DNA of 64,000 nt from Gammaproteobacteria bacterium (GTDB lineage Bacteria; Pseudomonadota; Gammaproteobacteria; SZUA-152), in the NCBI GenBank assembly GCA_021648485.1, contig JAKISS010000010.1, forward strand, positions 485-64,484, written 5' to 3'. A model generated the notes under the pieces. That model was not told the origin of the DNA. It saw only the letters and a program-made list of their open reading frames with translations, and searched no databases. This document shows positions 5,631-62,374 of this stretch, in pieces. The position numbers were made by a program, and so were the translations under genes. Positions within the stretch are counted from its first letter, which is position 1, and each line of letters starts with the position of its first letter.

Positions 5631-6203
5631 ATGGCCAAAGATTACAAAAATACTTCCAGACCCAAAACCAAGCCTCCCAAGCCAGCGCCGGGTTGGGTGT
5701 GGATGCTCGGTGGTTTGCTGATTGGCTTGTTGGTCGCGCTGCTGGTGTATCTCAGCGATGATTTGCAAACGGGCAGTGAGCGTGCAACGCCAGCGCCTGT
5801 GGTGGAAAAGAGTCAGGCTGCCCCCAAACAAGCCACAATTAATAACAAACCGAGGGAACAAACAGACAAAAAACCGCGTTTTGACTTTTATAATTTGTTG
5901 CCGGAAATGGAGGTATTTATTCCGCCACAAGAATTAGCGACGGAACGCGAACGCAAAACGGCGGATTCCATGACCTATTATTTGCAAGCGGGCTCTTTCC
6001 GCCGCATGGAAGATGCTGACCGTATGCGAGCCCAGCTGGCATTAAATAACATTGAATCTCATATTCAGCGCGTTACCATTAATAACAGTCAGACTTGGTA
6101 CAGGGTGCGAGTTGGTCCCTTTCAGAGCGCGCGCAAAATGGACGTAGTGCGTAACCGCCTGCGGGCACAATCCATAGACCCGATTGTGCTCAAGGTTAAA
6201 TAA
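5631..6203 (+). CDS. SPOR domain protein (FtsN/DedD-like cell-division peptidoglycan binder)
   Basis: N-terminal TM helix, a proline- and charge-rich linker, and a C-terminal SPOR-like YYLQAGSFRRMEDADRMRAQL...WYRVRVGPF. Confidence 0.75.
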   Translation: MAKDYKNTSRPKTKPPKPAPGWVWMLGGLLIGLLVALLVYLSDDLQTGSERATPAPVVEKSQAAPKQATINNKPREQTDKKPRFDFYNLLPEMEVFIPPQELATERERKTADSMTYYLQAGSFRRMEDADRMRAQLALNNIESHIQRVTINNSQTWYRVRVGPFQSARKMDVVRNRLRAQSIDPIVLKVK

Positions 6204-6410
6204 GTTCTTTTTATGCGCTTTCACAGTTGACCCTCAGGGTCAGCTTCTGACACTCTGTGACACTCGTCACGGTACGGTGAGTCGGCCAGTTTTACACGGC
6301 AAATCCGAGGTTTTTGCTGTAAACCTTTCGCCTCCTCTGCCGTTATACTTTGCAGGGAAAGTCGCTGACTTTGCTGCCTTTTTAGCCTGCCAGAACCGAT
6401 GATTAAATAA

Positions 6411-9400
6411 ATGAGCGCTGCCAAACAACTGCTGGATCACAAGTTGCTGAGATCGTTGTCGCCGCTGTGTGACCTGTCCCCCGATATGCTGGCTGAACTC
6501 AGTGATAAATCACGAGTGACCCAGGTGGTGACTGGTGCAACAATTTTCAAACAGGGTGAGCGGGATCATCGCACCCTGTACCTTGTGGCTGGCAAGCTGG
6601 AGCTTACTGATGCCTCGGGAAAAACCACAAAGTTAGTCGCTAACAGCAAGCAGGCACGCCAACCGCTGGATTCCATATCCCCACACACCGTTACCGCTGT
6701 TGCGAAGACACCGGTTTCCCTGCTGAACATCGATACCGACCTGCTTGAAATGTTGCTCAACTGGGGTGGAAAACAACAATCTTACGAAGTATCCAGTCTG
6801 GCAGTGGAGGAAGAAGATACCGACTGGATGAGTCGCTTCCTGCAATCCAAGGTCTTCCTCAAACTGCGCGCGGAAAACATCCAGACCATGATGATGCGCA
6901 TGGAAGAAATCAAGGTGCGCGCAAATACCGTGGTGATCAATCAGGACGACGATGACGACAACTATTACATCATTGCCAAAGGAAAGGCGAAAGTTGCCCG
7001 CCGGGTAGCCCCGGGTGCGCCGCTGATGAAGCTGGCGATTTTGACACCAGGCACCGGTTTTGGTGAAGAGGCGCTGATCAGCAATGGCAAGCGTAATGCC
7101 TCGGTGACCATGATGGAAGATGGTACGCTGATGCGACTGTCAAAAGAGGATTTTATCAGTCTGCTGGTCACCCCTATTTTGCAATATGTATCTTTTGATG
7201 AAGCCAAAGCCATGACAGGCCCGGATGTGCAATGGCTGGATGTGCGCAAACTGGCTGAATACTCCCGGGGCAGTCTGCCCGGCGCACGCAATATCCAGTT
7301 AGCTGAAATGCGCTTGCAACTGCGCAAGCTTAACAAATTACACAAATACATTGTTTTCAGTGATGGCGGCAGTCGTGCGGCGGCGGCTGTATTTTTGCTT
7401 AACCAGTATGGTCTGGATGCTTTTGTATTACGTGATGGCTTGAATGCTGTTTCGGCGTCTGCACTGGAAAAAAATGCGAGCAAATCACCTGCACAAACCA
7501 GCATACAGGCAACACCGCAAGACGTACCGACTCTGAAACCAGAGGATAATGTTGTCAATCTGCATGGCGAAGCCACAACCAGCGTGGAAAGCGATGGTCG
7601 CGTGGAAGCGCTGATGAGCAAGGCCAAGCAGCGCGTACAACAGGAAATGCAGCGCACCCAGGCGGCAGACAACGCCCGCAAACAAGCATTGGCCGAAGTA
7701 GCGAGGCTCAAAGAAGAAGCAGCCATTGCACGAAAAAAAGCCGAAGACGAAGCACGGCATGCAGCCGACCATGCGCGCAGCGAGGCAGAACGAGCCGCTG
7801 CACAAAAACGGGCCGATGATCTGGCCGCTGAACAGGCAGAGCGTGAAGCTGCCGTGCAGCGGGCAGAAGCAGAAACCGCGCGGGCTGAACAGGCTATGCA
7901 GGCACAAAAAAAAGCCGAAGAGGAAATTGAGCGCCTCAAACAGGATGCCGCCCAAGCACGTCGTGATATGGAAGCCCAGGCACGTCAATCAGCGGATACT
8001 GCGAAAAAAGAGACGGAAGACGAAATTATTCGTCTCAAGGCCGACGCTGAAATGGCACGTCGGCGCGTTGAAGAACAAGCCAGACTGGCCGCTGATGCAG
8101 CGCGTTCCGAAACAGAACGCAAGATGGCTCAGCAGCGTGCTGAAGAGGTCAGCCGCCATCAACAAGAAGCTGAAAGCGCTTTGCAAAAAGCCGAAATTGA
8201 GGCTATGCGCGCGCAACAGGCCGAAGCCGCACGGCAACAGGCCGAAGACGAAGCCGAGCGCATGCGCACCCGTGCTGAAGAAACCCAGCGCGAAATGGAA
8301 GAGCAAGCGCGTTTAGCCGCAGATCAGGCGCGTTCCGAAGCCGAGCGTGATGCTGCCCGGCAACGCGCCGAGGATCTGGCCGAACAACAGGAAGAACTGG
8401 AAGATGCGGTAAGCAAGGCTGAATCAGAAGCTGCGCGCGCGCAGGCAGCAGAAAGTGAGGTTGAGCGCCTGACAAAACTGGCAGACGAGGCGCGACTTCA
8501 GGCTGAAGCGCAGGCGCGCATGGCAGCGGATCAAGCGCGCAGTGAGGCAGAGCGCGAAATGGCTGCACAACGTGCGCAGGAAATGGGGCGCTTGCAGGCC
8601 GAGCGGGAAGAAATGGCAAGAAGGGCGGAAGATGAGGCATGTCGAACCCGGGCTGCTGAAGACGCTCGTTTACAAGCTGAAGCCGAAATTCAGCGGTTGA
8701 AGGTAGATGCTGAAGTAGCACGCATGCAGTTGGAAGAGCAGGCGCAACGGGTTGCTGATGCTGCACGCTCTGATGCAGAACGCGAAGCCATGCGCGCGCA
8801 GGCCGCCGAAGAAGCCCGCCTACAGGCGGTGCATGAACTGGAGCGCCTGGAAGCTGAAACAGAGCAAACACGTCTGGCCGCTGAGGCACAGGCGCGCTTG
8901 GCTGCTGATGCTGCACGTAGCGAAGCAGAGCGTGCGGCGGCGAGCCTGCGAGCCGAAGAACTGGCTCAGCAACAGGCTCAGCTGGAAGAAATTACCCGTC
9001 GTGCTGAGGAAGAAGCAACCCGTGCAGAAGAAGCCGATGCCGCACGGCAGCGGGCTGAAAATGAAATTATCCGTCGTCAGGCCGAGGCGGAAGAAGCCGA
9101 ACGGCGTGCAGCCGAAGAATCGAATCGTGCCCGGGAGGCTGAAACAGCCCGCCAGCAAATGGAAAAAGAAATGGCGCAGTTGCGAGCCGAGGCAGCGGCA
9201 GCCCGCGAGCAAGTGGAAAAACAGGCACGATTGTTTGCGGCCGCACAAAAGATTGAGGCAGAAGAGGCGCAGAAAAACAATTTGGAGGCCATGGATGTCG
9301 AGCGTAAAAAACGTGAAACTGCCGAGGCGGTTGCACAACAACAGACTCAACAACAAAGAGAAACCGAAATATTAGCTGAACAGGAGCGTTTGTCTAACGC

Positions 9401-11021
9401 AGAAGCCATGCTCCGCAAACAGGAAATGGAAGATGTTGCACGCATTGCCAAAGAAGAGGCTGTACGAGCGCAACAGGTTGCCGAAAAAATGCGCCGGGAG
9501 GCGGAAGAGGAAATCAAACGTCTGAAAGCGGAAGCGGAAGCTTCACGGTTACAGGCTGAGCTGGAGCACAAACGTTCCATTATCGCTGCTCGGCGTGAGG
9601 TGGATAAAAATCAAATCAAATTGGCAGCACAGGCTAAGGCAAAAAAGGCCGCCGCCATTCAACAACGCAAAAAAGCCGATGCCGGTAAGGCACGCCGGAT
9701 CCGCGAAGCCCGCGAGGCAGCACTGAAAGCCATTGGTAAAAATGAAGAAAGTCTGGACGACTTTATGGAGTTGGAAGCCGCAGCGGAAGAAGTTGCCGAA
9801 GTGGAAAACGCGATTATTGTGGACGAAAAAGAGATTGCCGAACGTGCCAAAGACCGATCAAACCTGATTGATCCCCGGGAAGTGATGAAGGTCGAAAAAC
9901 AGGAACAAAAACGCCAATGGGTATCAGACGATTTTATCTGGGAAGCAACACTGGGCTATCGTGATGATCCACATGTAGATGCTATTGGTTCACCAGCAGA
10001 CTCTGTGGGCGTTGAAAACGAGCGCAATCGAAAAGCAGAAAAAATTGCCGAGGAAAAAGTGCGACAGGAAACGGTCACACAAAATCCATCAATAGCATTG
10101 GAAGATAAGCAGGCAACGCAAAAACCATTGTTTGAAACGCAGGAAATCAATCGGTCGATTCGACCGCAACAGGATGTGACAACGCGGAAGCCCAAACGAG
10201 GGCCAGGCGGGAGGTGGATGGCAAGCGCTGCGTTGTTTCTGGTGATTATTTCCGGGGTAGGCTGGTTTTATTTTTCTGGTGGTGATGCGCCAGAAAAATT
10301 GAGGGCTGTAGTCAATCAGGGGACAGAGACACTGGGCGAAATTACCGACAAAGTAACCTCAAGCATTGGTGAAATAGGCCAGTCTGAACCTGAAACGCCT
10401 GCCAGTTCCGATGTGGAGGATGTCAAAAGTAAAGAGACTATAGCGCGTTTGCGTGAACGCCTGGAATCAATCAAGGCTGAAGCAGCCCAAAAAACGAATG
10501 TGGAAACGGGGCTTGTGGTGGCACCCGTGGTGATGCCTGCTGTAGAGGTGTCTCCCATGAGTGAAGCCCCTGTGACTGAAGTGTCAGAGGAGGCACCATT
10601 AATGCCGAATATTCAGGCCGAAGAACCAGCAGCAACAGTAGAAAAACAAGCGGAAGAAATAATAGAAGAAAGCGCGCTGGAGACGGTTGATGATGTGATG
10701 AGGGCATTGAATACGCCAGAGGCTATTACCGGGACAGTGGAAGTTGAAGCAGCGGTGGAAACCATTGAACTCGAAGTGATAGAACCCGAAACAATGGATG
10801 CTGTGATTGAAGATGAGGTCAGCACAGTGGAGTCGGTGGATAGCTTACCTATTGTTGATAAAGTGACTGACGCTGATGAGAGCATCGCCGAAACAGCAGT
10901 CCCTGTTACCATAGGTGATGCTGTCGCGGAAGAACCAAGGGATACAATCCCGGATAGCGTGGATGTGTTGGTGCCAACAGAAGCGCTGCCAATAGAAAAT
11001 ATTATACCCGCCAGTCAGTAG
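6411..11021 (+). CDS. Giant multidomain protein: 2x cyclic-nucleotide-binding domain, rhodanese-like domain, ~730-aa charged coiled coil, one TM helix, acidic C-terminal tail
   Basis: Second cNMP domain carries GTGFGEEALISNGKRNASV. Rhodanese-like WLDVRKLAEYSRGSLPGARNI...IVFSDGGSRAAAA. A/E/R/Q repeats follow. TM helix is WMASAALFLVIISGVGWFYF (nt ~10215-10275), followed by an E/V/P-rich tail. Confidence 0.85.
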   Translation: MSAAKQLLDHKLLRSLSPLCDLSPDMLAELSDKSRVTQVVTGATIFKQGERDHRTLYLVAGKLELTDASGKTTKLVANSKQARQPLDSISPHTVTAVAKTPVSLLNIDTDLLEMLLNWGGKQQSYEVSSLAVEEEDTDWMSRFLQSKVFLKLRAENIQTMMMRMEEIKVRANTVVINQDDDDDNYYIIAKGKAKVARRVAPGAPLMKLAILTPGTGFGEEALISNGKRNASVTMMEDGTLMRLSKEDFISLLVTPILQYVSFDEAKAMTGPDVQWLDVRKLAEYSRGSLPGARNIQLAEMRLQLRKLNKLHKYIVFSDGGSRAAAAVFLLNQYGLDAFVLRDGLNAVSASALEKNASKSPAQTSIQATPQDVPTLKPEDNVVNLHGEATTSVESDGRVEALMSKAKQRVQQEMQRTQAADNARKQALAEVARLKEEAAIARKKAEDEARHAADHARSEAERAAAQKRADDLAAEQAEREAAVQRAEAETARAEQAMQAQKKAEEEIERLKQDAAQARRDMEAQARQSADTAKKETEDEIIRLKADAEMARRRVEEQARLAADAARSETERKMAQQRAEEVSRHQQEAESALQKAEIEAMRAQQAEAARQQAEDEAERMRTRAEETQREMEEQARLAADQARSEAERDAARQRAEDLAEQQEELEDAVSKAESEAARAQAAESEVERLTKLADEARLQAEAQARMAADQARSEAEREMAAQRAQEMGRLQAEREEMARRAEDEACRTRAAEDARLQAEAEIQRLKVDAEVARMQLEEQAQRVADAARSDAEREAMRAQAAEEARLQAVHELERLEAETEQTRLAAEAQARLAADAARSEAERAAASLRAEELAQQQAQLEEITRRAEEEATRAEEADAARQRAENEIIRRQAEAEEAERRAAEESNRAREAETARQQMEKEMAQLRAEAAAAREQVEKQARLFAAAQKIEAEEAQKNNLEAMDVERKKRETAEAVAQQQTQQQRETEILAEQERLSNAEAMLRKQEMEDVARIAKEEAVRAQQVAEKMRREAEEEIKRLKAEAEASRLQAELEHKRSIIAARREVDKNQIKLAAQAKAKKAAAIQQRKKADAGKARRIREAREAALKAIGKNEESLDDFMELEAAAEEVAEVENAIIVDEKEIAERAKDRSNLIDPREVMKVEKQEQKRQWVSDDFIWEATLGYRDDPHVDAIGSPADSVGVENERNRKAEKIAEEKVRQETVTQNPSIALEDKQATQKPLFETQEINRSIRPQQDVTTRKPKRGPGGRWMASAALFLVIISGVGWFYFSGGDAPEKLRAVVNQGTETLGEITDKVTSSIGEIGQSEPETPASSDVEDVKSKETIARLRERLESIKAEAAQKTNVETGLVVAPVVMPAVEVSPMSEAPVTEVSEEAPLMPNIQAEEPAATVEKQAEEIIEESALETVDDVMRALNTPEAITGTVEVEAAVETIELEVIEPETMDAVIEDEVSTVESVDSLPIVDKVTDADESIAETAVPVTIGDAVAEEPRDTIPDSVDVLVPTEALPIENIIPASQ
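7749..9000 (+). repeat. Diverged tandem coiled-coil repeats (period ~69-76 aa) inside the giant CDS
   Basis: The anchor motif (E/A)QAR(L/M)AAD(A/Q)ARSEAER recurs at nt 7749, 8073, 8301, 8508, 8736 and 8886. Codons differ between copies. Confidence 0.7.
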
Positions 11022-11042
11022 TCATCCCGGGGAGGTGCAGGT

Positions 11043-11564
11043 TTATTCTGCGGCAGGTATTGTTGCCGTTACGTATTCAAATGTGCTGGTGTGCAGGGTT
11101 TCACCATTCTCATTGTTTACCACGACCTTCCATGTGCCTGTCCATTCAGGTAGCAGATTCTTGCTGGAATAAACCCGCCAACGTGCCCCGGAGCCAACTC
11201 TAAAGGTGATTTCAGCCATGATCTGACCATTATGTTCCCAGCGATGGGTAACAATTTGTCTGTCGAGCCCACGCAGGTCTGTGAAGAAAAAAATCCGGCT
11301 GGTATCTGTCGAAAATGTCTCCAGTGCGTCTATTGGCTCTCTGTCAACAATGGCGGTGGTAAAAATGGCCCGTGCAACATGATCAGTTTTGTTTGCTACC
11401 GGGCTGACTGTTGCTGGCGTTATTGCCGTTGCTGTTTCAATCTCGCTTGCTGTTTTTTCCGCAATCTCTGCAAGACTGGGGGGCGTTATGACCACCCCGG
11501 TCAGTAGCGCCAACATCGCATTGCGGGTTATCCGTCCAGTGGAAACAAAGTAGGGGGCGAACAT
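11043..11564 (-). CDS. DUF2914-like secreted protein
   Basis: Signal-like N-terminus. The motif FTTAIVDREPID...THRWEHNGQ...RWRVYSSK...GTWKVVV matches my recollection of the DUF2914 domain. Confidence 0.55.
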   Translation of the reverse strand: MFAPYFVSTGRITRNAMLALLTGVVITPPSLAEIAEKTASEIETATAITPATVSPVANKTDHVARAIFTTAIVDREPIDALETFSTDTSRIFFFTDLRGLDRQIVTHRWEHNGQIMAEITFRVGSGARWRVYSSKNLLPEWTGTWKVVVNNENGETLHTSTFEYVTATIPAAE

Positions 11565-11763
11565 GAGACTGACTCCTTTGCTATCTTGTTTTGGGGTTTC
11601 TAGCCGGTATCGTGACCCGGGTTTTTAGTTATATATCGGGCGGTTGGCAGGATGAGTGTATCAGAGTTCGTGTGTACGGAAAGGGCTGATGGCATGGTTG
11701 GTAAAATTGCCGCTGAGGTGGCCTATTATTGAACGGCTATTTTCCGCTGAATTTATAGTGTTT

Positions 11764-12216
11764 TTATTTACACCATTGATCAGCGACTTTTTGTGCTTCA
11801 GTCAAACGTGTCTGAATGTCCGTATCGCTGAGAAAACGGCGCTCTCCCTGGTCGGTGATTTCATATTGGCGACCGCCAAGTTTCAGGCTGATGACGCGAC
11901 GTTTAGCACTGGAACAATTTTTATCCCGACGTTCTTTTTCTGCTGCTACCTTGTTCGCAGCCGCTTTTTTATCTTTGCGTTCTTTGGCAAAGGCATCCAA
12001 CAGTTTATTGGTAGCATCCTGTTGATTGACCGGTTGTGGAGCCGATGTGCGAGCCGGGTCTTTGGGCAGTTTTATTTGTGTGGCTTGTTGACTGGGCGGA
12101 CGTTCGCCGTAATGGGTGTTGCCGTCACTGTCAGTCCATTTGTAGATTTTACTGGCAAAACTCAGGGACGACAGGCATAACAGGAAAACAGTTGCCAGAA
12201 TAATCAGGTTTTTCAT
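11764..12216 (-). CDS. DUF4124 domain protein (secreted)
   Basis: Start moved to MKNLIILATVFLLCLSSLSFA (signal peptide). It is followed by KIYKWTDSDGNTHYGERPP, the DUF4124 hallmark. Confidence 0.65.
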   Translation of the reverse strand: MKNLIILATVFLLCLSSLSFASKIYKWTDSDGNTHYGERPPSQQATQIKLPKDPARTSAPQPVNQQDATNKLLDAFAKERKDKKAAANKVAAEKERRDKNCSSAKRRVISLKLGGRQYEITDQGERRFLSDTDIQTRLTEAQKVADQWCK

Positions 12217-12470
12217 GCATAACCTCATCAAGGGTGGGTGTTGCAGGGAGCATAGCGTGGAACAGGAGGCCTGTAAATTTAACGGCGCTTCGGATTCAGA
12301 CTTTAGCAGATTGTTGATCGCCAAATATTTTCAAAGAACATAAATACATCCACAATCGTTAAAACCCAAGCGTTAACCTCAACACACACAACTAAAACCT
12401 GCCCCTAACATTCCACGCGCACTTTTATGTAACCCATGGCATGCTTTATTTGCCCGCTAAAAATGGTTGC

Positions 12471-12496
12471 AAAAAAAAGCGCCCGGCAAAGGGCGC
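12471..12496 (-). terminator. Rho-independent terminator of glnK-amtB
   Basis: The minus strand reads GCGCCCTTTGCCGGGCGC followed by T8. It lies 47 bp after the amtB stop. Confidence 0.75.
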
Positions 12497-12542
12497 TTGA
12501 AGTTGTCTGTTCACGGACAGACTTATTGTTGTGTCGTTTAAG

Positions 12543-13826
12543 TTATTTATTGGTGAATTCGGGATAAGCCTCCATACCGCACTCGGTAAGATCGACTCCC
12601 TCATACTCTTCTTCTTCTGTGACGCGCACACCCATGATCATCTTGATAATCATCCAGGTGATGTAACTGACCACGAATACCCAGACCAGAATGGTAAACA
12701 TGCCCACGAGCTGGCCACCAAGGCTGGCACCGTCATTGGTAAGCGGTACAGCTAACAGACCCCATATACCAACGACACCATGCACTGAAATGGCACCCAC
12801 CGGGTCATCAACCTTCAGCTTATCCAGGCCGATGATGGCGAACACTACCAGCAGGCCACCGAAACCACCAATCAGAGTGGCTTCCAGGGCAGAGGGGGTG
12901 GAAGGCTCGGCAGTAATTGCCACCAAACCCGCTAACGCGCCATTAAGTGTCATGGTTAAATCAGCCTTACCGAACAGCAATTTGGCAACAATCAATGCAA
13001 CAATCACACCACCCGCTGCCGCCGCATTCGTGTTCAGAAACACCATGGCCACCGAGTTGGCATTGGCAATATCGCCCAGCTTGAGCACGGAACCACCGTT
13101 GAAACCGAACCAGCCCATCCACAGGATGAACGTGCCCAGTGTTGCCAAGGGTAGATTGGCACCCGGGATTGCGTTGACCGAGCCATCTTTGCCATATTTG
13201 CCCTTACGAGCACCCAATACCAGTACGCCAGCTAAAGCCGCCGCTGCGCCCGCCATATGCACAATGCCGGAACCGGCAAAATCGGAGAAGCCGAAATCAT
13301 CACCCAGGTTGTACATGCCAAACACAGAATTACCACCCCAGGTCCAGCTACCTTCCATGGGATAGATGAAGCCGGTCATCACAACCGCAAACAACATGAA
13401 CGCCCACAGTTTCATGCGTTCTGCAACGGCACCGGAAACGATAGACATGGCGGTTGCCACAAAAACCACCTGAAAGAAGAAATCAGATGCATTGGAATAC
13501 ACTGCACTTCCGTCAAAACCGGCTTCAGCGGATTCTTTTAATACCGTACCGACCATGGCATCTGTATTTTCAGCACCGTCCAGCACGATGTTGGCCAGGA
13601 ACATACCGCCGTCATACATGATGTCGTAGCCGATCGCCAGGTACATGGTGCAGGCAATGGCAAACAATACGACGTTTTTGGTGAGAATTTCTGTGGTGTT
13701 TTTAGAGCGAACGAGTCCCGCTTCCAGCATGGCAAAACCTGCTGCCATCCACATCACCAAGGCACCACACACCAGAAAATAAAAGGTGTCCATGGCGTAC
13801 TGCAAATGAAAAATATTAGCTTCCAT
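12543..13826 (-). CDS. amtB: Ammonium transporter
   Basis: Amt family multi-TM protein (FAGSGIVHMAGAAAALAGVLVLGAR...NGALAGLVAITA) directly downstream of glnK. Confidence 0.95.
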   Translation of the reverse strand: MEANIFHLQYAMDTFYFLVCGALVMWMAAGFAMLEAGLVRSKNTTEILTKNVVLFAIACTMYLAIGYDIMYDGGMFLANIVLDGAENTDAMVGTVLKESAEAGFDGSAVYSNASDFFFQVVFVATAMSIVSGAVAERMKLWAFMLFAVVMTGFIYPMEGSWTWGGNSVFGMYNLGDDFGFSDFAGSGIVHMAGAAAALAGVLVLGARKGKYGKDGSVNAIPGANLPLATLGTFILWMGWFGFNGGSVLKLGDIANANSVAMVFLNTNAAAAGGVIVALIVAKLLFGKADLTMTLNGALAGLVAITAEPSTPSALEATLIGGFGGLLVVFAIIGLDKLKVDDPVGAISVHGVVGIWGLLAVPLTNDGASLGGQLVGMFTILVWVFVVSYITWMIIKMIMGVRVTEEEEYEGVDLTECGMEAYPEFTNK

Positions 13827-13843
13827 TATTATTGCTCCCCGTT

Positions 13844-14239
<396 letters not shown>

Positions 14240-14378
14240 TTACTGATGATTGCTACTGGTTACCGCGAAGTTGCAGTCCGAAAGAGTTGTCCGGGTTTAT
14301 TGGATCTCATTATTTTTTTCATATTTTCTCCCCAAATTAAAAGTGTGTTAATGGATTGGAAAATCTCCAATTACACAT

Positions 14379-14394
14379 AGCATCGACTGTGCCA
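14379..14394 (-). promoter_or_regulatory. Sigma54 promoter of glnK-amtB
   Basis: The minus strand reads TTGGCAC-AGTCG-ATGCT, the same architecture as the site at 3484-3499. Confidence 0.55.
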
Positions 14395-14489
14395 AGATAT
14401 GTAATGGTATTTTTTTCAGTAAGTTATGATAATTTTACAGGTTCAGCTGATGTTGCTTTGCACTAAAATGAGGAGCTTGACAGCGGCGC

Positions 14490-14517
14490 GCACCATTGTT
14501 GAGCGCTATATTGGTGC
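14490..14517. promoter_or_regulatory. Candidate NtrC-type enhancer inverted repeat GCACCA-N16-TGGTGC
   Basis: The half-sites resemble NtrC TGCACC/GGTGCA halves and lie ~100-125 bp upstream of the sigma54 promoter. The spacing is non-canonical. Confidence 0.3.
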
Positions 14518-14702
14518 AGGCATTTTTCGGGCATGCAAAAATAGGCCATATTGGGAATTGCGTGGTGAATCACTGGTCAGCACCCGTCTTATCTCGTTAA
14601 GATAATATGTGGCTTAAATCTTGTGGGCACGATCACTTGCAGGATGTTAGGCGTGACAGATGCAACGTATCTGTTGAGATAATCATGAAGGAGGTCAGCA
14701 AG

Positions 14703-14960
14703 ATGTTTGAAAATCGTTTAGACCCGAAAAAACTGGATGAATTGGCTCGCAGCGTGCTGGACAAATTGCCTGCCGGTTTTCAGACCATGCAACAGGATAT
14801 GGAAAAAAATCTGCGGGCAGCCTTACAAGTCGCACTCGCCAAAATGGAGCTGGTGACCCGCGACGAATTTGAAGTACAAAGCGCGGTATTGCAACGTAGC
14901 CGCGAAAAACTGGCGGCGCTGGAAGCAAGAGTGACTGAACTGGAAAAACAACTGAAATAA
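14703..14960 (+). CDS. ubiK: Ubiquinone biosynthesis accessory factor UbiK (YqiC/BMFP family)
   Basis: MFENRLDPKKLDELARSV...VTRDEFEVQSAVLQRSREKLAALEARVTELE. AAGGAGG sits 8 nt upstream of ATG 14703. The gene is divergent from glnK, as in pseudomonads. Confidence 0.75.
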   Translation: MFENRLDPKKLDELARSVLDKLPAGFQTMQQDMEKNLRAALQVALAKMELVTRDEFEVQSAVLQRSREKLAALEARVTELEKQLK

Positions 14961-15048
14961 CTTTTCCCGGTAGATGCATATATTCGACAAGCTACCGGCA
15001 CTCCTGCCATGAGGTAGAATGCCACCAGGTTGTTACCGGTGGACTGCC

Positions 15049-16410
15049 ATGCCCAATTCAAACAAAGAACACGAGCACCGCACCAAACGATTGCAGGCGT
15101 TCACGGATTTGCTCCGTGATGGCACGCTTGCCCGCGTGAAACGCGAGTTGCATGAGTTGCATCCGGCAGAAATTGCTCATTTGCTGGAAGCTCTGCCGCA
15201 TGAGCAGCGTGATGCGGTATGGGAGCTGGTTTCAGCTGAGCAGGAAGGCGATGTGTTGCTACAAGTCAACGATGATGTGCGTGAGCGATTGATTCGTGAC
15301 ATGGACAACAGCGAGTTGCTGGCTGCTGCCGAAGGACTGGAAGCCGATGATCTCGCCGATATTCTCAGCGATTTTCCTGATGCGGTAACCGATCAGGTAT
15401 TAGAGGCTATGGATGCGCAGCACCGCGAGCGTTTGGAAGCCGTGATGTCTTACCCGGAAGACACCGCTGGCGGGCTGATGAATATCGACACTATCACTGT
15501 GCGTGCCGATATCAGTCTCGATGTCGTTCTGCGTTACCTGCGACGTATCGGTGAAATTCCGGAAATGACCGATCAGCTTATTGTGACCAATCGCGAAAAC
15601 AAATACCTCGGGCTGTTGCCACTGACAACGTTGCTGATCAAAAACCCCGATACGCTGGTCGCAGAACATATGGATCGTGAACGGGAGGCGATTCTCGCCA
15701 CCCTGCCGGAGCAGGAAGTCGCCAGCTTGTTTGAAAAACGTAATCTGGTGTCTGCGCCTGTGGTGGACGAAGACGGTCGGCTGCTGGGTCGTATCACCAT
15801 CGATGATGTGGTGGATGTGATTCGTGATGAAGCCGAGCATTCGTTGATGAGCATGGCGGGTCTCTCGGAAGAGGATGATATGTTTGCGCCCGTGGCTACC
15901 AGCTCACAACGCCGAGCTGTCTGGCTGGGTGTGAATCTACTCACCGCTTTGCTGGCATCATGGGTTATTGGCCAGTTCGATGCCACCCTGGAAAAAATGG
16001 TGGCACTGGCTATTCTCATGCCGATTGTTGCCAGCATGGGCGGCATTGCGGGTAACCAGACCCTGACGTTAGTCATTCGCGGTATGGCGCTGGGGCAAAT
16101 CAGCCGTTCCAATGCGCGGCGGTTGTTTAACAAGGAGCTGTTGGTAGGCGGGCTCAACGGGGTGATTTGGGCGCTGATCGTCGGCGGTATTGTAACGGCC
16201 TGGTTTGGCGATGCACAATTAGGTGGCATTATCGCCGCCGCAATGCTGATTAACCTGATTGTTGCTGCCATGGCCGGGGCGACCATTCCGCTGATGCTCA
16301 AGCGTGTCGGTATTGATCCTGCGCTGGCGGGTGGTGTGTTGCTGACCACAGTCACGGATGTCATTGGCTTTCTGGCTTTTTTGGGGCTGGCAGCCCTGCT
16401 GTTGTATTAA
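15049..16410 (+). CDS. mgtE: Magnesium transporter MgtE
   Basis: MgtE N-domain, tandem CBS domains, and a C-terminal TM domain (MPIVASMGGIAGNQT...TDVIGF). Confidence 0.9.
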   Translation: MPNSNKEHEHRTKRLQAFTDLLRDGTLARVKRELHELHPAEIAHLLEALPHEQRDAVWELVSAEQEGDVLLQVNDDVRERLIRDMDNSELLAAAEGLEADDLADILSDFPDAVTDQVLEAMDAQHRERLEAVMSYPEDTAGGLMNIDTITVRADISLDVVLRYLRRIGEIPEMTDQLIVTNRENKYLGLLPLTTLLIKNPDTLVAEHMDREREAILATLPEQEVASLFEKRNLVSAPVVDEDGRLLGRITIDDVVDVIRDEAEHSLMSMAGLSEEDDMFAPVATSSQRRAVWLGVNLLTALLASWVIGQFDATLEKMVALAILMPIVASMGGIAGNQTLTLVIRGMALGQISRSNARRLFNKELLVGGLNGVIWALIVGGIVTAWFGDAQLGGIIAAAMLINLIVAAMAGATIPLMLKRVGIDPALAGGVLLTTVTDVIGFLAFLGLAALLLY

Positions 16411-16998: not shown

Positions 16999-18207
16999 GT
17001 GTCCGATTTTTTCATTGCCCGCCAACCCATCTATGATCGCAAACTGTATGTGTATGCCTATGAACTGCTGTATCGTTCCAGCGAAAAAAATTACGCTGAT
17101 ATAGTCGATGGCGACGATGCCACTTCCCAGGTACTGGTCAATGCGCTGATGGAGGTTGGGCTACCTGAACTGGTCGGGCAATCATTGGCCTTTATCAATC
17201 TCACTGAACGTTACATTGTGGAAGGCTTGCCGCCATCGTTGGCTCAGGACAATCTGGTGCTGGAGGTATTGGAAGACATCGAACCCACGGAGGCCGTGAT
17301 TACCGGTCTGAAAAAACTGAAAGCTGCGGGTCACGTCATCGTTCTTGATGATTTTATTTGTGATGGCAGCAAACAGGCACTGGTAGAGCTGGCAGATATC
17401 ATCAAATTTGATCTGTTCACTTTGCCGGGAGGCACATTAACCGAGCAGGTCAAAAAACTCCGCCCAACCGGTGTGCGTTTACTGGCAGAAAAAGTCGAAA
17501 CCCCGGAAGAATACGAATATTGCAAAGCGTTGGGCTTTGATTATTTTCAGGGGTACTTTTTTTGCAAACCGAAAATTGTTAAAGGCGCACGTACGCTGAC
17601 AAGCCGCATGGCCATCATGCAATTGCTGACCAAGTTGCAGAATCCTGAACTGGACTTCAGTGAACTGCAAACATTGGTGGCACAGGATGTTTCCCTGTCA
17701 TACCGGATTTTGCGTTATATCAATTCCGCGCATGTCAGTGTTGGGCGAAAAGTCGAGTCCATACAGCAAGCCATCAGTTTGTTGGGCCTCAACACCATCA
17801 AAACCTGGGTGGCGATCCTGGCCATGTCGAGTATTGATGACAAGCCTTACGAACTGATTCTTACGGCGTTGATTCGTGCGCACATGTGCGAAACATTGTC
17901 TGCTGACACGCCTGTATCTGCTGAAAACGCCTTCACTGTGGGCCTATTCTCAGCATTGGATGCCTTCATCAATAAACCTCTGGATGAAATTCTGGACACC
18001 TTACCGCTATCAGATACACTGCATCATGCTCTGTTGGATAAAACCGGCGAACTGGGGCAACTGCTGTCACTGGTATTAAGTTATGAGCGCGGTCAATGGA
18101 ACGATCTGAGTAACACACACTATAACGGCGGCACTTTGCGCACAGCCTATCTGGCATCGATTCGCTGGGCGGGTGAAATCAGTCATTCGCTGATCACCAA
18201 AAAATAA
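16999..18207 (+). CDS. EAL + HDOD domain protein (c-di-GMP phosphodiesterase-type signalling protein)
   Basis: EAL-domain residues are readable (YELLYR, FINL, LEVLED, VLDDF, IKFD, AEKVET, FQGYFF). A C-terminal HDOD-like region follows. GTG start. Confidence 0.8.
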   Translation: MSDFFIARQPIYDRKLYVYAYELLYRSSEKNYADIVDGDDATSQVLVNALMEVGLPELVGQSLAFINLTERYIVEGLPPSLAQDNLVLEVLEDIEPTEAVITGLKKLKAAGHVIVLDDFICDGSKQALVELADIIKFDLFTLPGGTLTEQVKKLRPTGVRLLAEKVETPEEYEYCKALGFDYFQGYFFCKPKIVKGARTLTSRMAIMQLLTKLQNPELDFSELQTLVAQDVSLSYRILRYINSAHVSVGRKVESIQQAISLLGLNTIKTWVAILAMSSIDDKPYELILTALIRAHMCETLSADTPVSAENAFTVGLFSALDAFINKPLDEILDTLPLSDTLHHALLDKTGELGQLLSLVLSYERGQWNDLSNTHYNGGTLRTAYLASIRWAGEISHSLITKK

Positions 18208-56313: not shown

Positions 56314-57264
56314 GTGTCAGATCAGTTTTTTGAAAAACCAATCTTGAACTCGCCATATGAGTATCCAAATACTCACCGGGAGCTTGATGAATCGGGACAG
56401 CCGACACAGAAAGTCGTCAATGCCCGTCGTAGGGCAGAGTTTATAACGCCTATTCCCAGACCCCGAAAGCGAAAAGGGCCGGTTGAACAGGCGCAAATGG
56501 ACTTAGGGACAACCATTGGCCCGGAGGGTGATTCGCAGCGATACGACCCTACGCCGATTATTAACCAGCTCCGTAGCCATGTAGATGAGTGGCGTAGATT
56601 GAAAAACCCAAATGACTGGGGAGTGACGCCGGAGACAGCGAGGCTTCTGCAACATTGGCGGCACCACAGCTTTAACGAAATACGGCCATTTTTCTGCCAG
56701 ATAGAAGCCGTGGAAGTGGCTATATGGCTTACCGAAGTCGCACCTAAAATAGGCAAGGCAGGCAAAATATTCCTGAATCACCTCGATAGCGCCAACAATG
56801 ATGCAAACCCAGAATTGATGAGACTGGCATTAAAACTAGCCACCGGGGCAGGTAAGACCACTGTCATGGCGATGATTATCGCCTGGCAGACAATCAACTC
56901 GGTGCGCCGCTCCAACAGTAAAAAGTACTCCCGGGGGTTTCTTATTGTTGCACCAGGGTTAACGATTAAAGACCGGCTTCGTGTCTTGTTGCCCAACGAT
57001 CCAGACAGCTACTACGCCAGCCGCGAGCTGGTGCCCAACGATATGTTGCCTGATCTGGAAAAGGCCAAAGATGACATTATTCCCCTTGAGTCGCGCTTGT
57101 CCTCTGTATCAGACGATACGGTTGACCTTGAAGAGGTTTACAATACTGAACGACATTTGCTCTATGTTGCCTGCACTCGTGCGAGGGATCATTTGTTAGT
57201 GACGGGTGTTGAGCCTGGATCTGAGTTTTTGGATGATCTGAAGGTATTGGCTAGTGATGAGTGA
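56314..57264 (+). CDS. Chimeric ORF, probably a pseudogene: type III restriction Res/DEAD-box helicase N-terminal ~250 aa fused in frame to a UvrD-like helicase C-terminal remnant
   Basis: FFEKPILNSPYEYP...LATGAGKTTVMA (helicase motif I, nt ~56836-56862) with no later helicase motifs. From ~57070 the sequence switches to ...ERHLLYVACTRARDHLLV (SF1 motif VI-like). Confidence 0.65.
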   Translation: MSDQFFEKPILNSPYEYPNTHRELDESGQPTQKVVNARRRAEFITPIPRPRKRKGPVEQAQMDLGTTIGPEGDSQRYDPTPIINQLRSHVDEWRRLKNPNDWGVTPETARLLQHWRHHSFNEIRPFFCQIEAVEVAIWLTEVAPKIGKAGKIFLNHLDSANNDANPELMRLALKLATGAGKTTVMAMIIAWQTINSVRRSNSKKYSRGFLIVAPGLTIKDRLRVLLPNDPDSYYASRELVPNDMLPDLEKAKDDIIPLESRLSSVSDDTVDLEEVYNTERHLLYVACTRARDHLLVTGVEPGSEFLDDLKVLASDE

Positions 57265-58942
57265 CACGATGACAGAGCAGGAACTTCATGATTACCTGCA
57301 AACTCATTACTCCACAGAGAATGTGAGCTGTGAGCACAAAGCATTTTCTCGCCTTCGCCATGCGGTGTCGGGTAAAGCGGGTGATGACGTGATTTCCTAT
57401 GTGTCAGCGCTGGCTAATATGGAGGGTGGTCAGCTTATCTTCGGTGTTGAGGATGGCACGCTTAATGTTCTGGGCATTGCTGATTGCCACGATTTCACTC
57501 CGGAAAATCTGCCACATCGTTTGATCGGTAACTGTGTCAATCTAAACAGTGAGGGGCTGCGGGTTGAGGTCTTCATCACTCAGGACTCGGGCAAGCGGGT
57601 GTGGGTGCTTCATGTACCCAAGCATCAGCCGAGGAAGCCGGTGTTTGCTCATCGTAAGGGGTGGCAGCGTAGCGGTGATAGTTTGATCGAATTACGGCCT
57701 GAGCGAGAAGCGGTTATTTTGGCTGAAGCGGTTTCTGCCAATGAGGATTGGTCAATTCAGGTGGTGGAAGATGCAACCTTGGATGATCTTTCAGCAGAGG
57801 CAATTACTGCTGCCCGAAATCACTTCAAAAAGAAAAATGCTACGTTAGCTGCGGAGGTGGATAGGTGGAGTGATGAGGTTTTTCTAAACAAGGCTAAGCT
57901 GACGATTCAGGGCAAGATAACGCGGGCCGCCTTGGTGCTGCTGGGTAAGCCGGAGTCTGATCACTTTTTAACACCTGCGGTGGTTACCCTAAGCTGGATT
58001 GTAAAGGATCGGGATGGTCTGGAAGAGGACTATGAGCATTTTTCTGCACCGCTAATTTTGGCGGTGGACAAGCTCTTTGCCCGTATCCGTAATCTTAAAT
58101 ATCGCTATATGGCAGATAGCACGCTGTTTCCAGAAGAGGTGAATAAATACGATACCTGGGTTATTCGTGAGGCTCTACATAATTGCATCGCTCATCAGGA
58201 CTATCAATTAGGCGCGCGAGTGGTGGTTGTGGAATTTCCAGACCGGCTGGTATTTTCCAACAAAGGGGGCTTTATCCCTGGTGATGTGGAACGGGTGATT
58301 AGCCTGGATGCCCCTGAACCTTACTACCGTAACCGTTTTTTGGCCCAGGCAATGGTGAGCCTGAATATGATTGATACGGTGGGTAGTGGTATCAAGAAAA
58401 TGTACGTTACGCAGCGTCGTCGTTTCTTTCCCATGCCTGATTACCGTATTGAGCCAGATGGCGTGATGGTGACTATCTATGGCCGTATCGTGGACGAACG
58501 CTTCTCAAAGCTGCTGGCGGCAGATCCCGAGTTGTTGCTACATGATGTGATTTTGTTGGACAAAGTGCAGAAGGGCTATCAGTTAAGCGATGATGAAATA
58601 AAGACCCTGCGGGATAAAAAGCTGATTGAGGGGCGTAAACCCAATCTGTTTGTGTCGGCCAAAGTGGCGAGTGCAACGGGACAAAAGGCGGCTTACACCA
58701 AGCAAAAGGCCTTGGATCAGCAATATTATTTAGACATGATTCTTAAGCTCATTGAGCAGCATGGGGAAGTTGGCCGAGCAGATATTGATGAGCTGTTGTG
58801 GAAAATGCTTCCCGATTTTTTGGATGACAAACAGCGCAAAATCAAAATCAATAATCTTCTGAGCGAGCTTTCAGTACGGCAGGGGAAAATTCGCAATATT
58901 GGCACACGTGGCCAGCCGAAGTGGGTGTTGATAGGGAGCTAA
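57257..58942 (+). CDS. AlbA_2 (Schlafen-type) + HATPase_c_4 + C-terminal wHTH protein ('RecG-like ATP-binding / putative DNA-binding' family)
   Basis: N-terminal ENVSCEHKAF...ISYVSALANMEGGQLIFGVEDGTLNVLGI. Central REALHNCIAHQDYQLGARVVVVEFPDRLVFSNKGGF. Start could be 57254, 57257 or 57269. Confidence 0.75.
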   Translation: MSDTMTEQELHDYLQTHYSTENVSCEHKAFSRLRHAVSGKAGDDVISYVSALANMEGGQLIFGVEDGTLNVLGIADCHDFTPENLPHRLIGNCVNLNSEGLRVEVFITQDSGKRVWVLHVPKHQPRKPVFAHRKGWQRSGDSLIELRPEREAVILAEAVSANEDWSIQVVEDATLDDLSAEAITAARNHFKKKNATLAAEVDRWSDEVFLNKAKLTIQGKITRAALVLLGKPESDHFLTPAVVTLSWIVKDRDGLEEDYEHFSAPLILAVDKLFARIRNLKYRYMADSTLFPEEVNKYDTWVIREALHNCIAHQDYQLGARVVVVEFPDRLVFSNKGGFIPGDVERVISLDAPEPYYRNRFLAQAMVSLNMIDTVGSGIKKMYVTQRRRFFPMPDYRIEPDGVMVTIYGRIVDERFSKLLAADPELLLHDVILLDKVQKGYQLSDDEIKTLRDKKLIEGRKPNLFVSAKVASATGQKAAYTKQKALDQQYYLDMILKLIEQHGEVGRADIDELLWKMLPDFLDDKQRKIKINNLLSELSVRQGKIRNIGTRGQPKWVLIGS

Positions 58943-59224
58943 ACCTATTAATTAACCGCTATTTTAAGATTTTTTTATGAAAGGGAAGGTGGTAACTAAT
59001 TGTTTTTTATGTTTAATAGTTGTTTTTGTGGCAGTTGAAAATTAAAGGAAGACTAAAAATAGTGAGCTATGGAAGTCGGTGCTTGATCGTTCAGTTTGAA
59101 ACTTGTGCTTCATTTTCCTTTTCAGCAATACGATACCCCATTGCCCGGTAGCCTCGCTGGCGTTTATCCCACACTTTCAATAACGCAGGGTGTCCGGTAT
59201 TGACACTTGTGTTAGTAACGTGCC

Positions 59225-61474: not shown

Positions 61475-61508
61475 GGTCTGGCTCCAATTGATGTTCCGTG
61501 GTGTTCCA

Positions 61509-61536
61509 ATAGTAGCCCCTTGGCTGGGGGTGTCAA
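61509..61536 (-). promoter_or_regulatory. Sigma70-type promoter of the GTPase gene
   Basis: The minus strand reads TTGACA-16 nt-TACTAT, ending ~35 nt upstream of ATG 61474. Confidence 0.45.
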
Positions 61537-62374
61537 GCCTTACCGGAACACCTTGGAACATCACTGCGTGATGACGAAGGTTTGCCTCTAGCAAGCAGGG
61601 GATGAACTCTGTTGGGCTATAGTTATTGTTGCTGACAGTGTCAACGGCTCCCGAAGCGAATAGCTGCACAGTGTCCGCACTGCGAACACCTGCAACTCAT
61701 GTCCTTATGCAACGAAAAAGTGTTAGCACTGCTAACGTTTCTTAAAAACCATTCCATAATTCAAAAATACCCGCGAAAAGAGGCCTGTTGGGGTAAGTTT
61801 GCCGGGGAGTTACATTGTTACGCAACTGCTATACTGAACTTGTTCTAACCGCTATCGCTACGGTCAATTAGCGATACCCTTGCCGAGTAATCGGCACCCA
61901 GCGCCTCTTCGATCCGATTCAGGTGCGACAGTCTTTAGACTGCGGGTCATGCCTTAACACTTTCTTTATCAATATTCGGAGTCAGCTCCGAGCACCCTCA
62001 CGACTGATTACTTTGATCAATTCATCTTTATAGCTGCGCCAGATTGTCTGTTGCAGCATCAAATCACTGCGCCCGTCTTTGCTGGAGGCGCGTAGCGTGT
62101 CCACAGAGACGGGCGTCATGAGTATGGCGCAATGTCCTATCAATACAGGCTTTCTCGGCGTGCCTTGCCGATGTAAAAGCCCACAAAACCTCTGAATACG
62201 GCGGCAGGTTTATAATCTGCAACAGCCAGTACCTTACCTGCGATCTGTGCAATGCAGATCGTGCAGAGGTGCCATGTATTCGGGATTGAACTGCCCTGCT
62301 GCTATCAAGCAGCCCCTAGTCATGGGCAATGACCAAGGCGCGACCGGCGCTCCTCTGGTGCAGACTTATATAGC

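Follow-up and report, generated by a model that had tools for sequence, protein, structure and literature searches.

In most bacteria, cAMP acts almost only through CRP, and the polar cAMP-binding protein CbpA of Pseudomonas aeruginosa (Endoh and Engel 2009) is a rare effector of another kind (cited in PMC11139211). Few bacterial effectors of cAMP or cGMP are known outside the CRP-type transcription factors. The gene described here lies at 6411..11021 (+) of a 64 000-nucleotide stretch of gammaproteobacterial DNA (SZUA-152 lineage; assembly GCA_021648485.1, contig JAKISS010000010.1), hereafter called the window. It encodes a real, conserved and uncharacterised bacterial protein of 1536 residues, the giant protein, which combines two cyclic nucleotide-binding (CNB) domains, a rhodanese-like domain without the catalytic cysteine, a long helical rod, a single predicted transmembrane (TM) helix and an acidic tail. 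We rate it as belonging with the membrane-anchored helical scaffold proteins that bear a signalling head; its architecture is unusual and conserved.

The head of the giant protein resembles the regulatory subunit of protein kinase A (PKA-R) and cGMP-dependent protein kinase (PKG), with a structural match over the tandem domains CNB-A and CNB-B and a canonical phosphate-binding cassette in CNB-B. PKA-R is held at the membrane by A-kinase anchoring proteins (AKAPs). It holds a partner and releases it on nucleotide binding, and by analogy the head of the giant protein might do likewise at the membrane. The giant protein differs from PKA-R in its degenerate CNB-A and in having no dimerisation/docking domain, no inhibitor sequence and no known kinase partner. 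Its anchor, made of the rod and the TM helix, is covalent, and a pseudo-rhodanese follows CNB-B. CbpA can be likened to it by description only, as a non-transcriptional bacterial cAMP effector. In CbpA, one CNB domain is reportedly degenerate and the other functional, and localisation depends on cAMP; the protein is, however, small and soluble and lacks the rhodanese domain, the rod and the TM helix.

The initial annotation had compared the protein with HubP, FimV and TolA, a resemblance that proved to be only general. HubP and FimV, too, are large inner-membrane proteins that span the membrane once and contain long, charged regions of low complexity, and FimV is tied to cAMP signalling in Pseudomonas. 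Their defining features (PMC12918733) are a periplasmic N-terminal LysM-like domain that binds peptidoglycan, an extensive acidic cytoplasmic region and the C-terminal tetratricopeptide repeat (TPR) domain of FimV. The giant protein has no LysM, TPR or FimV domain according to Pfam, its topology is reversed and its acidic region is predicted to be periplasmic. In TolA, a very long helix, rich in Ala and charged residues, is joined to one TM helix. This TM helix is N-terminal and the long helix periplasmic, whereas in the giant protein the TM helix is at residues 1270–1288 and the long helix on the cytoplasmic side; the TolA C-domain is missing, and neither Pfam nor NCBIfam gave any TolA-related match. 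The geometry of the giant protein is that of the tail-anchored golgins, which consist of a binding head, a rod on the 100-nm scale and a C-terminal TM helix; these are eukaryotic and unrelated, and the analogy is functional only. FrzS and AglZ of Myxococcus xanthus, in which a receiver-like domain is joined to a long coiled coil, are localisation beacons (PMC1974792, PMC9811614). They share with the giant protein an atypical or partly degenerate N-terminal signalling domain fused to a long helical region, but their sensor is a receiver instead of CNB and rhodanese domains, they are soluble, with neither TM helix nor periplasmic tail, and they are not homologous to it. Literature searches on the architecture and on the combination of cyclic nucleotide-binding and rhodanese domains found no relevant paper. 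As the initial annotation had stated, no characterised protein with this combination emerged from these searches, from NCBIfam or from the Protein Data Bank (PDB), and no studied bacterial counterpart for the design was found.

The open reading frame (ORF) of the giant protein starts with ATG and comprises 1536 codons and a stop codon, with no internal stop in the ORF list or the translation. Full-length orthologues of 1486–1676 residues are present in at least 10 independent assemblies. A scan of one genome per species gave collinear full-length orthologues at loci L001 (1539 residues), L002 (1565), L003 (1593) and L006 (1575), and one of more than 1371 residues, ended by a contig edge, at L004; these five stem from different projects of metagenome assembly. 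Four further giants, on contigs of 53 to 373 kb, were reached through homologues of the neighbouring DUF2914 gene (L081, 1545 residues; L082, 1507; L083, 1522; L085, 1486), and two more were added by an exhaustive profile search (P0113, 1542; P0114, 1676). The nearest matches of the first protein search are short solely because their 3–4-kb contigs stop within the rod. Tandem Repeats Finder found no real tandem DNA repeats in the gene, only four trivial short rows; the repeats of the protein are thus not DNA repeats able to mislead an assembler, and mis-assembly or repeat collapse was ruled out by this result and by the collinear orthologues.

Selection was estimated by region as the ratio of non-synonymous to synonymous substitutions (dN/dS) against the orthologues L001 and L002, respectively. 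The values are 0.039 and 0.056 for the head, 0.061 and 0.048 for the rod, 0.10 and 0.11 for the post-rod region with the TM helix, and 0.34 and 0.42 for the tail, which is under relaxed selection. With a dN/dS of about 0.05, like that of the head, the rod is therefore translated, and its constraint equals that of the globular head. This purifying selection, together with the full-length orthologues in independent assemblies, refutes the earlier worry that the repeat region had been mis-assembled. Several long antisense ORFs (up to 324 residues) are found at 6965–9375 (-), within the rod-coding region; they are by-products of the skewed composition of the coding strand, as dN/dS favours the forward frame.

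Pfam recognised cNMP_binding twice in the giant protein (best match at residues 167–252, E = 4.5e-22) and Rhodanese once (residues 265–349, E = 1.5e-11), and no further domain. NCBIfam gave sub-threshold rhodanese matches only, and a sequence search of the PDB generic CNB and rhodanese matches only. The AlphaFold2 model of the head has a mean predicted local distance difference test score (pLDDT) of 87.4 and a predicted template modelling score of 0.60; only the termini and an acidic loop (residues 120–135) are modelled with low confidence. CNB-A is modelled as a beta-barrel with a helix at a pLDDT of about 85–95, and the score exceeds 90 across the rhodanese domain. When the model was compared with the PDB by Foldseek, the top matches were the tandem CNB-A/B modules of PKG I-beta (4z07) and PKA RI-alpha (E about 1e-19). 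As modelled, the head (residues 1–350) folds like the tandem CNB module of PKA-R and PKG.

CNB-A, the degenerate first fold, extends over residues ~18–118 (6462..6764, +) on the basis of the second Pfam stretch, the model and Foldseek, and CNB-B over residues 137–256 (6819..7178, +), as indicated by Pfam and by its cassette. This cassette, GTGFGEEALISNGKRNASV (residues 214–232; 7050–7106, +), aligns to PGDAFGELALLYNAPRAATV of the PKA-R of Toxoplasma gondii, and the HMMER alignment with the Toxoplasma protein pairs PGTGFGEEALISNGKRNASVT with PGDAFGELALLYNAPRAATVT. It reads GFGEEAL...RNASV. Conservation in the head was counted in an alignment of 25 homologues: G214, F217, G218, L222, R228 and A230 of the CNB-B cassette are invariant, and E219, E220, A221 and N229 are conserved in at least 90 per cent. 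The corresponding FGE...R.A cassette is absent from the CNB-A of every family member aligned. Judged from these residues, CNB-B alone is competent for cyclic-nucleotide binding and CNB-A is degenerate, in line with the initial reading of a degenerate first domain and a second one with a phosphate-binding cassette.

The helix following CNB-B (residues 245–256) enters the rhodanese domain (residues 265–349; 7203..7457, +) within ten residues. The active-site loop of this domain is FSDGGSRA in the window protein (residues 316–323; 7356–7379, +) and YCDTGRRS in most homologues, the catalytic Cys being replaced by Ser. Alignment with the CDTGRRS loop of the paralogues bears out the earlier remark that this Cys is missing. 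The position is occupied by Ser or Gly in nine out of nine close orthologues whose loop was read (the loops are SDGGSRA, SNHTHRA, SQEENRA, SNKGDRA, GNAENRS, SDKVGRA and SNHSDRA), and for this reason we regard the rhodanese as a pseudo-enzyme in the clade of the window protein.

A flexible linker rich in Thr, Pro, Ser and Gln (residues 350–395; 7458..7595, +) separates the head from the rod (residues 396–1135; 7596..9815, +). The rod is composed of 26% Ala, 19% Glu, 13% Arg, 10% Gln and 5% Lys, with no Pro and four Gly; the proline-free run covers 777 residues (378–1154; 7542–9872, +). Neither the rod nor the C-terminal third of the protein matches any Pfam family even at E = 10, and NCBIfam gave no match on rod or tail. 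By comparison with composition-preserving shuffles, pairs of opposite charges at i/i+3 and i/i+4 are enriched in the rod (z = 9.2), and an apolar stripe appears only when Ala is counted (z = 5.7 for a heptad, 5.9 for a hendecad). A giant coiled coil containing about 730 residues of heptad-like A/E/R/Q/K sequence had initially been proposed. The composition was confirmed, and the segment is more aptly described as one giant helix, uninterrupted and rich in salt bridges; the heptad is weak (z about 1 for strong hydrophobics, 5.7 for the stripe with Ala), and the coiled-coil signatures are only partial.

Conservation statistics were computed over 11 orthologues. Mean column conservation is 0.84 in the head, 0.50 in the linker, 0.81 in the rod, 0.67 in the post-rod region, 0.61 in the TM helix and 0.45 in the tail, and 281 of the 740 rod positions are invariant. 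The periodicity of rod conservation is strongest at 3.48 residues (power/variance 9.1), followed by 3.62 residues (7.8), and the local period at residues 816–920 is 3.52 (power 12). Comparison of the rod with itself gives a best offset of 76 residues. There are about seven divergent quasi-repeats of ~76 residues (residues 441–911; 7731..9143, +), each with a motif resembling A-R-S-E-A-E-R (at residues 455, 531, 564, 640, 709, 785 and 835), and three of the four orthologues at 64–66% identity show the same repeat spacing (109, 76, 69 or 145, 76, 50). The rod is certainly an uninterrupted helix, rich in salt bridges and with a conserved face; this face is compatible with coiled-coil pairing, which is probable for some stretches at least. 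If it forms one continuous helix, its length would be about 110 nm (740 residues at 0.15 nm).

Between the rod and the TM helix lie about 130 residues of mixed, proline-containing sequence. They include, about 80 residues N-terminal to the TM helix, the cytoplasmic W-SD motif KRQWVSDDFIWEATLGYRDDPHV (residues 1167–1189; 9909..9977, +), almost all positions of which are invariant in the alignment of the anchor module (consensus RQW[VI]SD..[IM]WE.TLG.R.D). The TM helix (residues 1270–1288; 10218..10274, +) has a Kyte–Doolittle value of 1.9 and is the sole segment above 1.4, the runner-up reaching 1.34; the single C-proximal hydrophobic helix described initially is thus recovered. The basic stretch RKPKRGPGGR immediately precedes it, and the 15-residue flanks contain five Lys or Arg on the N-side and two on the C-side. 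No signal peptide or TM segment was found at the N-terminus. The giant protein is predicted to be a bitopic inner-membrane protein, N-in/C-out and almost wholly cytoplasmic. The orientation, which agrees with the cytoplasmic head and coil and periplasmic tail of the initial annotation, is consistent with the positive-inside charge bias and is a prediction only.

The acidic periplasmic tail (residues 1291–1536; 10281..11018, +) corresponds to the Glu/Val/Pro/Asp/Thr-rich stretch of about 245 residues noticed earlier. It contains 17% Glu, 13% Val, 11% Ala, 9% Thr and 8% Pro, has a net charge of -44 and is probably disordered, with short conserved islands (GTETLGEITDKV..., ARLRERLESIKAEAAQK, LETVDDVMRAL and VESVDSLPIVD).

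A profile of the anchor region (W-SD region, TM helix and first periplasmic helices) searched against 1.84 billion representatives matched 23 proteins only, and a word-based search with the anchor module gave five partial matches. The profile matches include partial and complete proteins of the same build as the giant, two of them distant and carrying cyclic nucleotide-binding and rhodanese domains (P0121, 1257 residues; P0125, 1225 residues). Four proteins of 544–632 residues (P0124, P0127, P0128 and P0131) have a second architecture, with an N-terminal W-SD motif, a Pro/Gln-rich cytoplasmic region, one TM helix and periplasmic TPRs; the gene context of one locus of this type (L087, 5018–6643) is uninformative. 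In P0051 (517 residues), the head is followed by the W-SD motif and a TM helix without any rod. The W-SD motif is therefore an independent cytoplasmic module, since it is found both in the rod-less protein and in the TPR proteins, and it is probably a binding site.

Among the 80 best loci retrieved with the head as query, 58 encode free proteins of about 350 residues with the loop CDTGRRS, and about 20 encode long forms, defined by a head homologue, at least 280 proline-free helical residues, one TM helix near the C-terminus and a periplasmic end. About 25 long forms are known besides the window protein (L001–L004, L006, L010–L017, L020, L035, L070, L081–L083, L085, P0113, P0114, P0121 and P0125), and in nearly all of them the single TM helix is at an equivalent place. 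The names of head homologues in databases are generic ('cyclic nucleotide-binding domain-containing protein'). The free forms are 36–46% identical to the giant over the whole head and share its domain order and its degenerate CNB-A; they end after the rhodanese domain, keep CDTGRRS and often follow glnK-amt. They are paralogues, because a free and a long form coexist in locus L035.

The architecture recurs in three clades of Gammaproteobacteria that look like sulfur oxidisers. Clade A, to which the window protein belongs (1486–1676 residues), is characterised by the W-SD motif, the acidic tail, the loss of the Cys and argS-SPOR upstream. Clade B (L010–L017 and L020; 950–1160 residues) has a rod of 280–500 residues, the motif GRIILEGEEDIFIFKEP before the TM helix and a short tail; the Cys is kept and the loop arginines are lost. 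It includes a protein of 987 residues (L013) from the cultured Thiohalophilus thiocyanatoxydans DSM 16326. Most clade B loci carry ExbB-ExbD-ExbD-TonB genes immediately upstream, the Thiohalophilus loci being different; downstream are NERD, an unknown gene and then, in six loci, a gene for FHA plus a class III cyclase. The FHA-domain class III adenylate/guanylate cyclase is encoded at 15113–16036 (-) of L016, with equivalents in L010, L011, L015, L019 and L020, and a GGDEF protein is encoded near some clade B long forms. Clade C consists of L035 (1691 residues) and L070 (1808 residues), in which a periplasmic FGE-sulfatase domain (SUMF1-like, E = 4e-59) after the TM helix replaces the acidic tail. 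In L035, the long form is at about 10001–15073 and the free paralogue, of 357 residues, is encoded a few genes away.

The same plan of head, helix and TM helix thus carries three periplasmic ends: an acidic tail, a short tail or an FGE-sulfatase domain. The rod measures ~760–780 residues in the clade of the window protein and 280–860 in the other clades, and rods of different clades are not alignable, with a roughly three-fold difference in length. The idea that the protein is a ruler does not hold as a general property, given this range and the relative in which the anchor motif occurs without a rod. A strict ruler was also considered within clade A, where proline-free runs of 777, 777, 778 and 778 residues looked exact; it was rejected, because the alignment shows about 45 extra core residues in L003, offset by the borders of the run, and length conservation is therefore approximate and limited to the clade. 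The family presents an evolutionary series from a free enzyme-like module to a tethered pseudo-enzyme.

The convergent gene downstream of the giant gene encodes a small secreted DUF2914 protein (11043..11564, -; Pfam E = 3.2e-19), a candidate periplasmic partner. It is the sole neighbour common to clades A and B. It lies tail-to-tail with long forms, on the opposite strand, in nine loci of the two clades, versus none of the 58 free-form loci; the arrangement is seen in the window and in L081–L083, L085, L010, L011, L015, L016 and L019. Conversely, four of six sampled DUF2914 homologues adjoin a giant gene (1486–1545 residues); three of these giants carry precomputed cyclic nucleotide-binding and rhodanese matches, and the remaining one (L081) shares 64% identity with the window protein. 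Of the other two sampled homologues, one has no giant gene beside it and one, of a 267-residue type, is unrelated. AlphaFold2 models the DUF2914 protein as a seven-strand beta-sandwich (pLDDT 80–93 over residues 80–165). A search with this model gave only weak generic matches to Ig-like folds, UNC119, RhoGDI and PapD (E of at least 3e-4) and no functional lead, and a literature search on DUF2914 found nothing relevant.

From the architecture, we propose that the giant protein is a docking head, switched by cyclic nucleotides and carried on a long tether or scaffold at the membrane, and give this reading a probability of about 40 per cent. The cyclic-nucleotide-gated scaffold raised as one possibility in the initial annotation is likewise plausible. 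Binding of cAMP or cGMP to CNB-B would move its lid helix and reposition the pseudo-rhodanese, and this shift would alter which partner in the cytoplasm is held or released by the head. The rod and the TM helix would keep the switchable head tethered, either at up to ~100 nm from the inner membrane or alongside it. The rod could itself be a constrained surface for interaction or self-assembly, beyond a mere spacer, and the TM helix and tail would fix the protein to the envelope, possibly via the secreted DUF2914 protein. The protein would work like a PKA regulatory subunit that carries an AKAP-like anchor of its own. A tether or scaffold is favoured over a transmembrane relay because the head is paired with different rods and periplasmic ends and a rod-less form exists. 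The gene for an FHA and class III cyclase, three genes from the long form in six clade B loci, also counts in favour of this proposal as a link to cyclic-nucleotide synthesis.

Several observations weigh against it. The rod is as constrained as the head, which fits a role in a filament or lattice at least as well as a tether. The residues L/I/V/M/F/Y/W alone show no heptad pattern (z = 1.0–1.5) and the best register shifts often, so that a dimeric coiled coil is not established; the rod may instead be a single stable helix or a folded-back bundle. The DUF2914 gene is convergent, not co-transcribed, and is present without a giant gene in one sampled locus (L086). Finally, a search for a homologue of the clade B FHA-cyclase and a scan of the large ORFs revealed no nucleotide cyclase in the window.

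In its most specific form, the proposal becomes a long-range tether gated by a second messenger: a PKA-R-like head on a rod of ~100 nm projecting from the inner membrane would capture, position or release a cytoplasmic cargo or enzyme in response to cAMP or cGMP, the ~76-residue repeats would provide a periodic surface for binding or assembly, and the tail and the DUF2914 protein would fix the whole to the envelope. With all of these parts, it is rather unlikely. If true, it would be the first such tether in bacteria, and a principle like that of AKAPs and golgins would operate in a prokaryote. More broadly, the conserved family combines a PKA-R-like sensor, ligand-competent by sequence, with a rod that is anchored in the membrane and measures about a tenth of a micrometre, and points to a spatial, non-transcriptional use of cyclic nucleotides in environmental Gammaproteobacteria. 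The hypothesis is open to experiment in one cultured host, Thiohalophilus thiocyanatoxydans DSM 16326.

Among the other explanations, the one that survives best is a structural, membrane-attached cytoskeletal element, the rods of which would self-assemble laterally into a lattice or filament beneath the membrane, like crescentin, FilP/Scy or other proteins rich in coiled coils, the head only tuning assembly or being vestigial. The conservation of the rod, as strong as that of the head (dN/dS 0.05, 281 of 740 positions invariant), its helix-type periodicity and the maintained spacing of the ~76-residue quasi-repeats all speak for such an element. The invariance of the cassette throughout the family implies, however, that the head is not vestigial, and both the three-fold spread in length of rods that cannot be aligned between clades and the rod-less relative P0051 also count against it. 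We consider a mainly structural role unlikely.

The head could alternatively belong to a regulator of ammonium transport, working with GlnK-Amt as the free paralogues may do, and the giant form would then tether that function at the membrane. In the window, a glnK-amt pair (12543–14230, -) lies 1.5 kb from the giant gene, and such a pair is also found within a few kb in L001, L002, L006, L081, L083 and L085. In 28 of the 52 free-form loci with upstream DNA, an Amt gene on the same strand immediately precedes the free CNB-CNB-rhodanese gene, with a gap of 148–542 bp (examples are L018, L022, L023, L025, L026, L028, L029, L033 and L037). The order in L037 is Gcw_chp, P-II, Amt, CNB-CNB-rhodanese, AroE. 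This arrangement suggests that the module may be linked to ammonium transport or nitrogen signalling. Several facts count against such a role of the giant form: the pair in the window is convergent with the giant gene, from which two other genes separate it, no Amt gene occurs nearby in L082 or in the Thiohalophilus-like clade, and the Amt next to the free genes is another paralogue, with an identity of about 30%. The proximity may simply be inherited gene order, and we regard a role in ammonium transport as improbable for the giant protein.

A transmembrane signal transducer, in which the tail senses a stimulus and the signal runs along the coiled coil to the head, or in the reverse direction, would account for a protein that crosses the membrane once and has domains on either side of it, and for the folded periplasmic FGE-sulfatase domain of clade C. 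The intervening segments argue against it. The linker between head and rod is rich in Thr, Pro, Ser and Gln and weakly conserved, which makes a rigid mechanical coupling of the two unlikely; with the variable length of the rod, this flexibility also makes a conformational relay through the rod and across the membrane unlikely. The ~130 mixed, proline-containing residues before the TM helix and the acidic, fast-evolving and probably disordered tail of the window protein also count against it, and Pfam found no HAMP or S-helix-type element. A transducer is accordingly a poor candidate, and distinctly improbable.

A membrane-anchored sulfurtransferase with an active rhodanese, regulated by cyclic nucleotides, would agree with the rhodanese fold, with the Cys kept in the free paralogues and in the Thiohalophilus-like long forms, and with hosts that look like sulfur oxidisers. 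The Cys is nevertheless replaced by Ser in the window protein and by Ser or Gly in all nine close orthologues read, and the long forms that keep it are mostly without the loop arginines (CDDGSHS, CNDGTQS), so this activity is very improbable. Pycsar effectors combine cyclic nucleotide-binding and TM segments. That resemblance, the long low-complexity sequence and the close homologues on short contigs that end inside the rod would fit a phage-defence effector of this type, an assembly artefact or a pseudogene, but such explanations are hardly credible beside the absence of DNA tandem repeats, the strong purifying selection, the collinear full-length orthologues in independent assemblies (including contigs of 200–370 kb), the lack of any PADLOC match for the giant protein or its neighbours, and the conserved core-chromosome synteny with argS. 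A Pycsar- or CBASS-type effector was rejected on the last two of these grounds.

The giant gene is preceded on the same strand by genes for ArgRS and a SPOR-domain protein (5631..6203, +; Pfam SPOR E = 2.7e-20) and followed on the opposite strand by those for DUF2914, DUF4124, Amt and P-II. The SPOR, DUF2914 and DUF4124 neighbours named initially were confirmed; the SPOR protein is recognised by its domain only, and the role in cell division ascribed to it is putative. The order argS-SPOR-giant is found in L001, L002, L003, L005, L006, L008, L081, L082, L083 and L085 but does not extend to the Thiohalophilus-like clade. An upstream ORF of three codons (ATG ATT AAA TAA; 6396–6410, +) ends directly against the giant start codon. 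It is seen in the closest relatives only (L001, and L002 with an overlap), GGAATAGAGA preceding the ATG in its place in more distant orthologues, and it was dropped as a feature because of this restricted distribution. There is no clear Shine–Dalgarno sequence at the giant start codon, and a scan for promoters and terminators near the gene gave nothing beyond shuffled expectation.

The window is part of the core chromosome and not of an island; it encodes PriA, ArgRS, MgtE, RpoN, TrkAH, NtrY and MetH. At 16999–18207 (+), it codes for a protein of 402 residues with a partial EAL domain (C-terminal half of the profile only) followed by HDOD, which may be a degenerate signalling protein related to c-di-GMP. 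Near the far end, a protein of 814 residues with weak dynamin-family and GTPase matches (59225–61669, -) adjoins one with Schlafen/AlbA_2 and HATPase_c_4 domains (57254–58942, +), and the genes at 57254–61669 may form a small accessory or defence-like patch.

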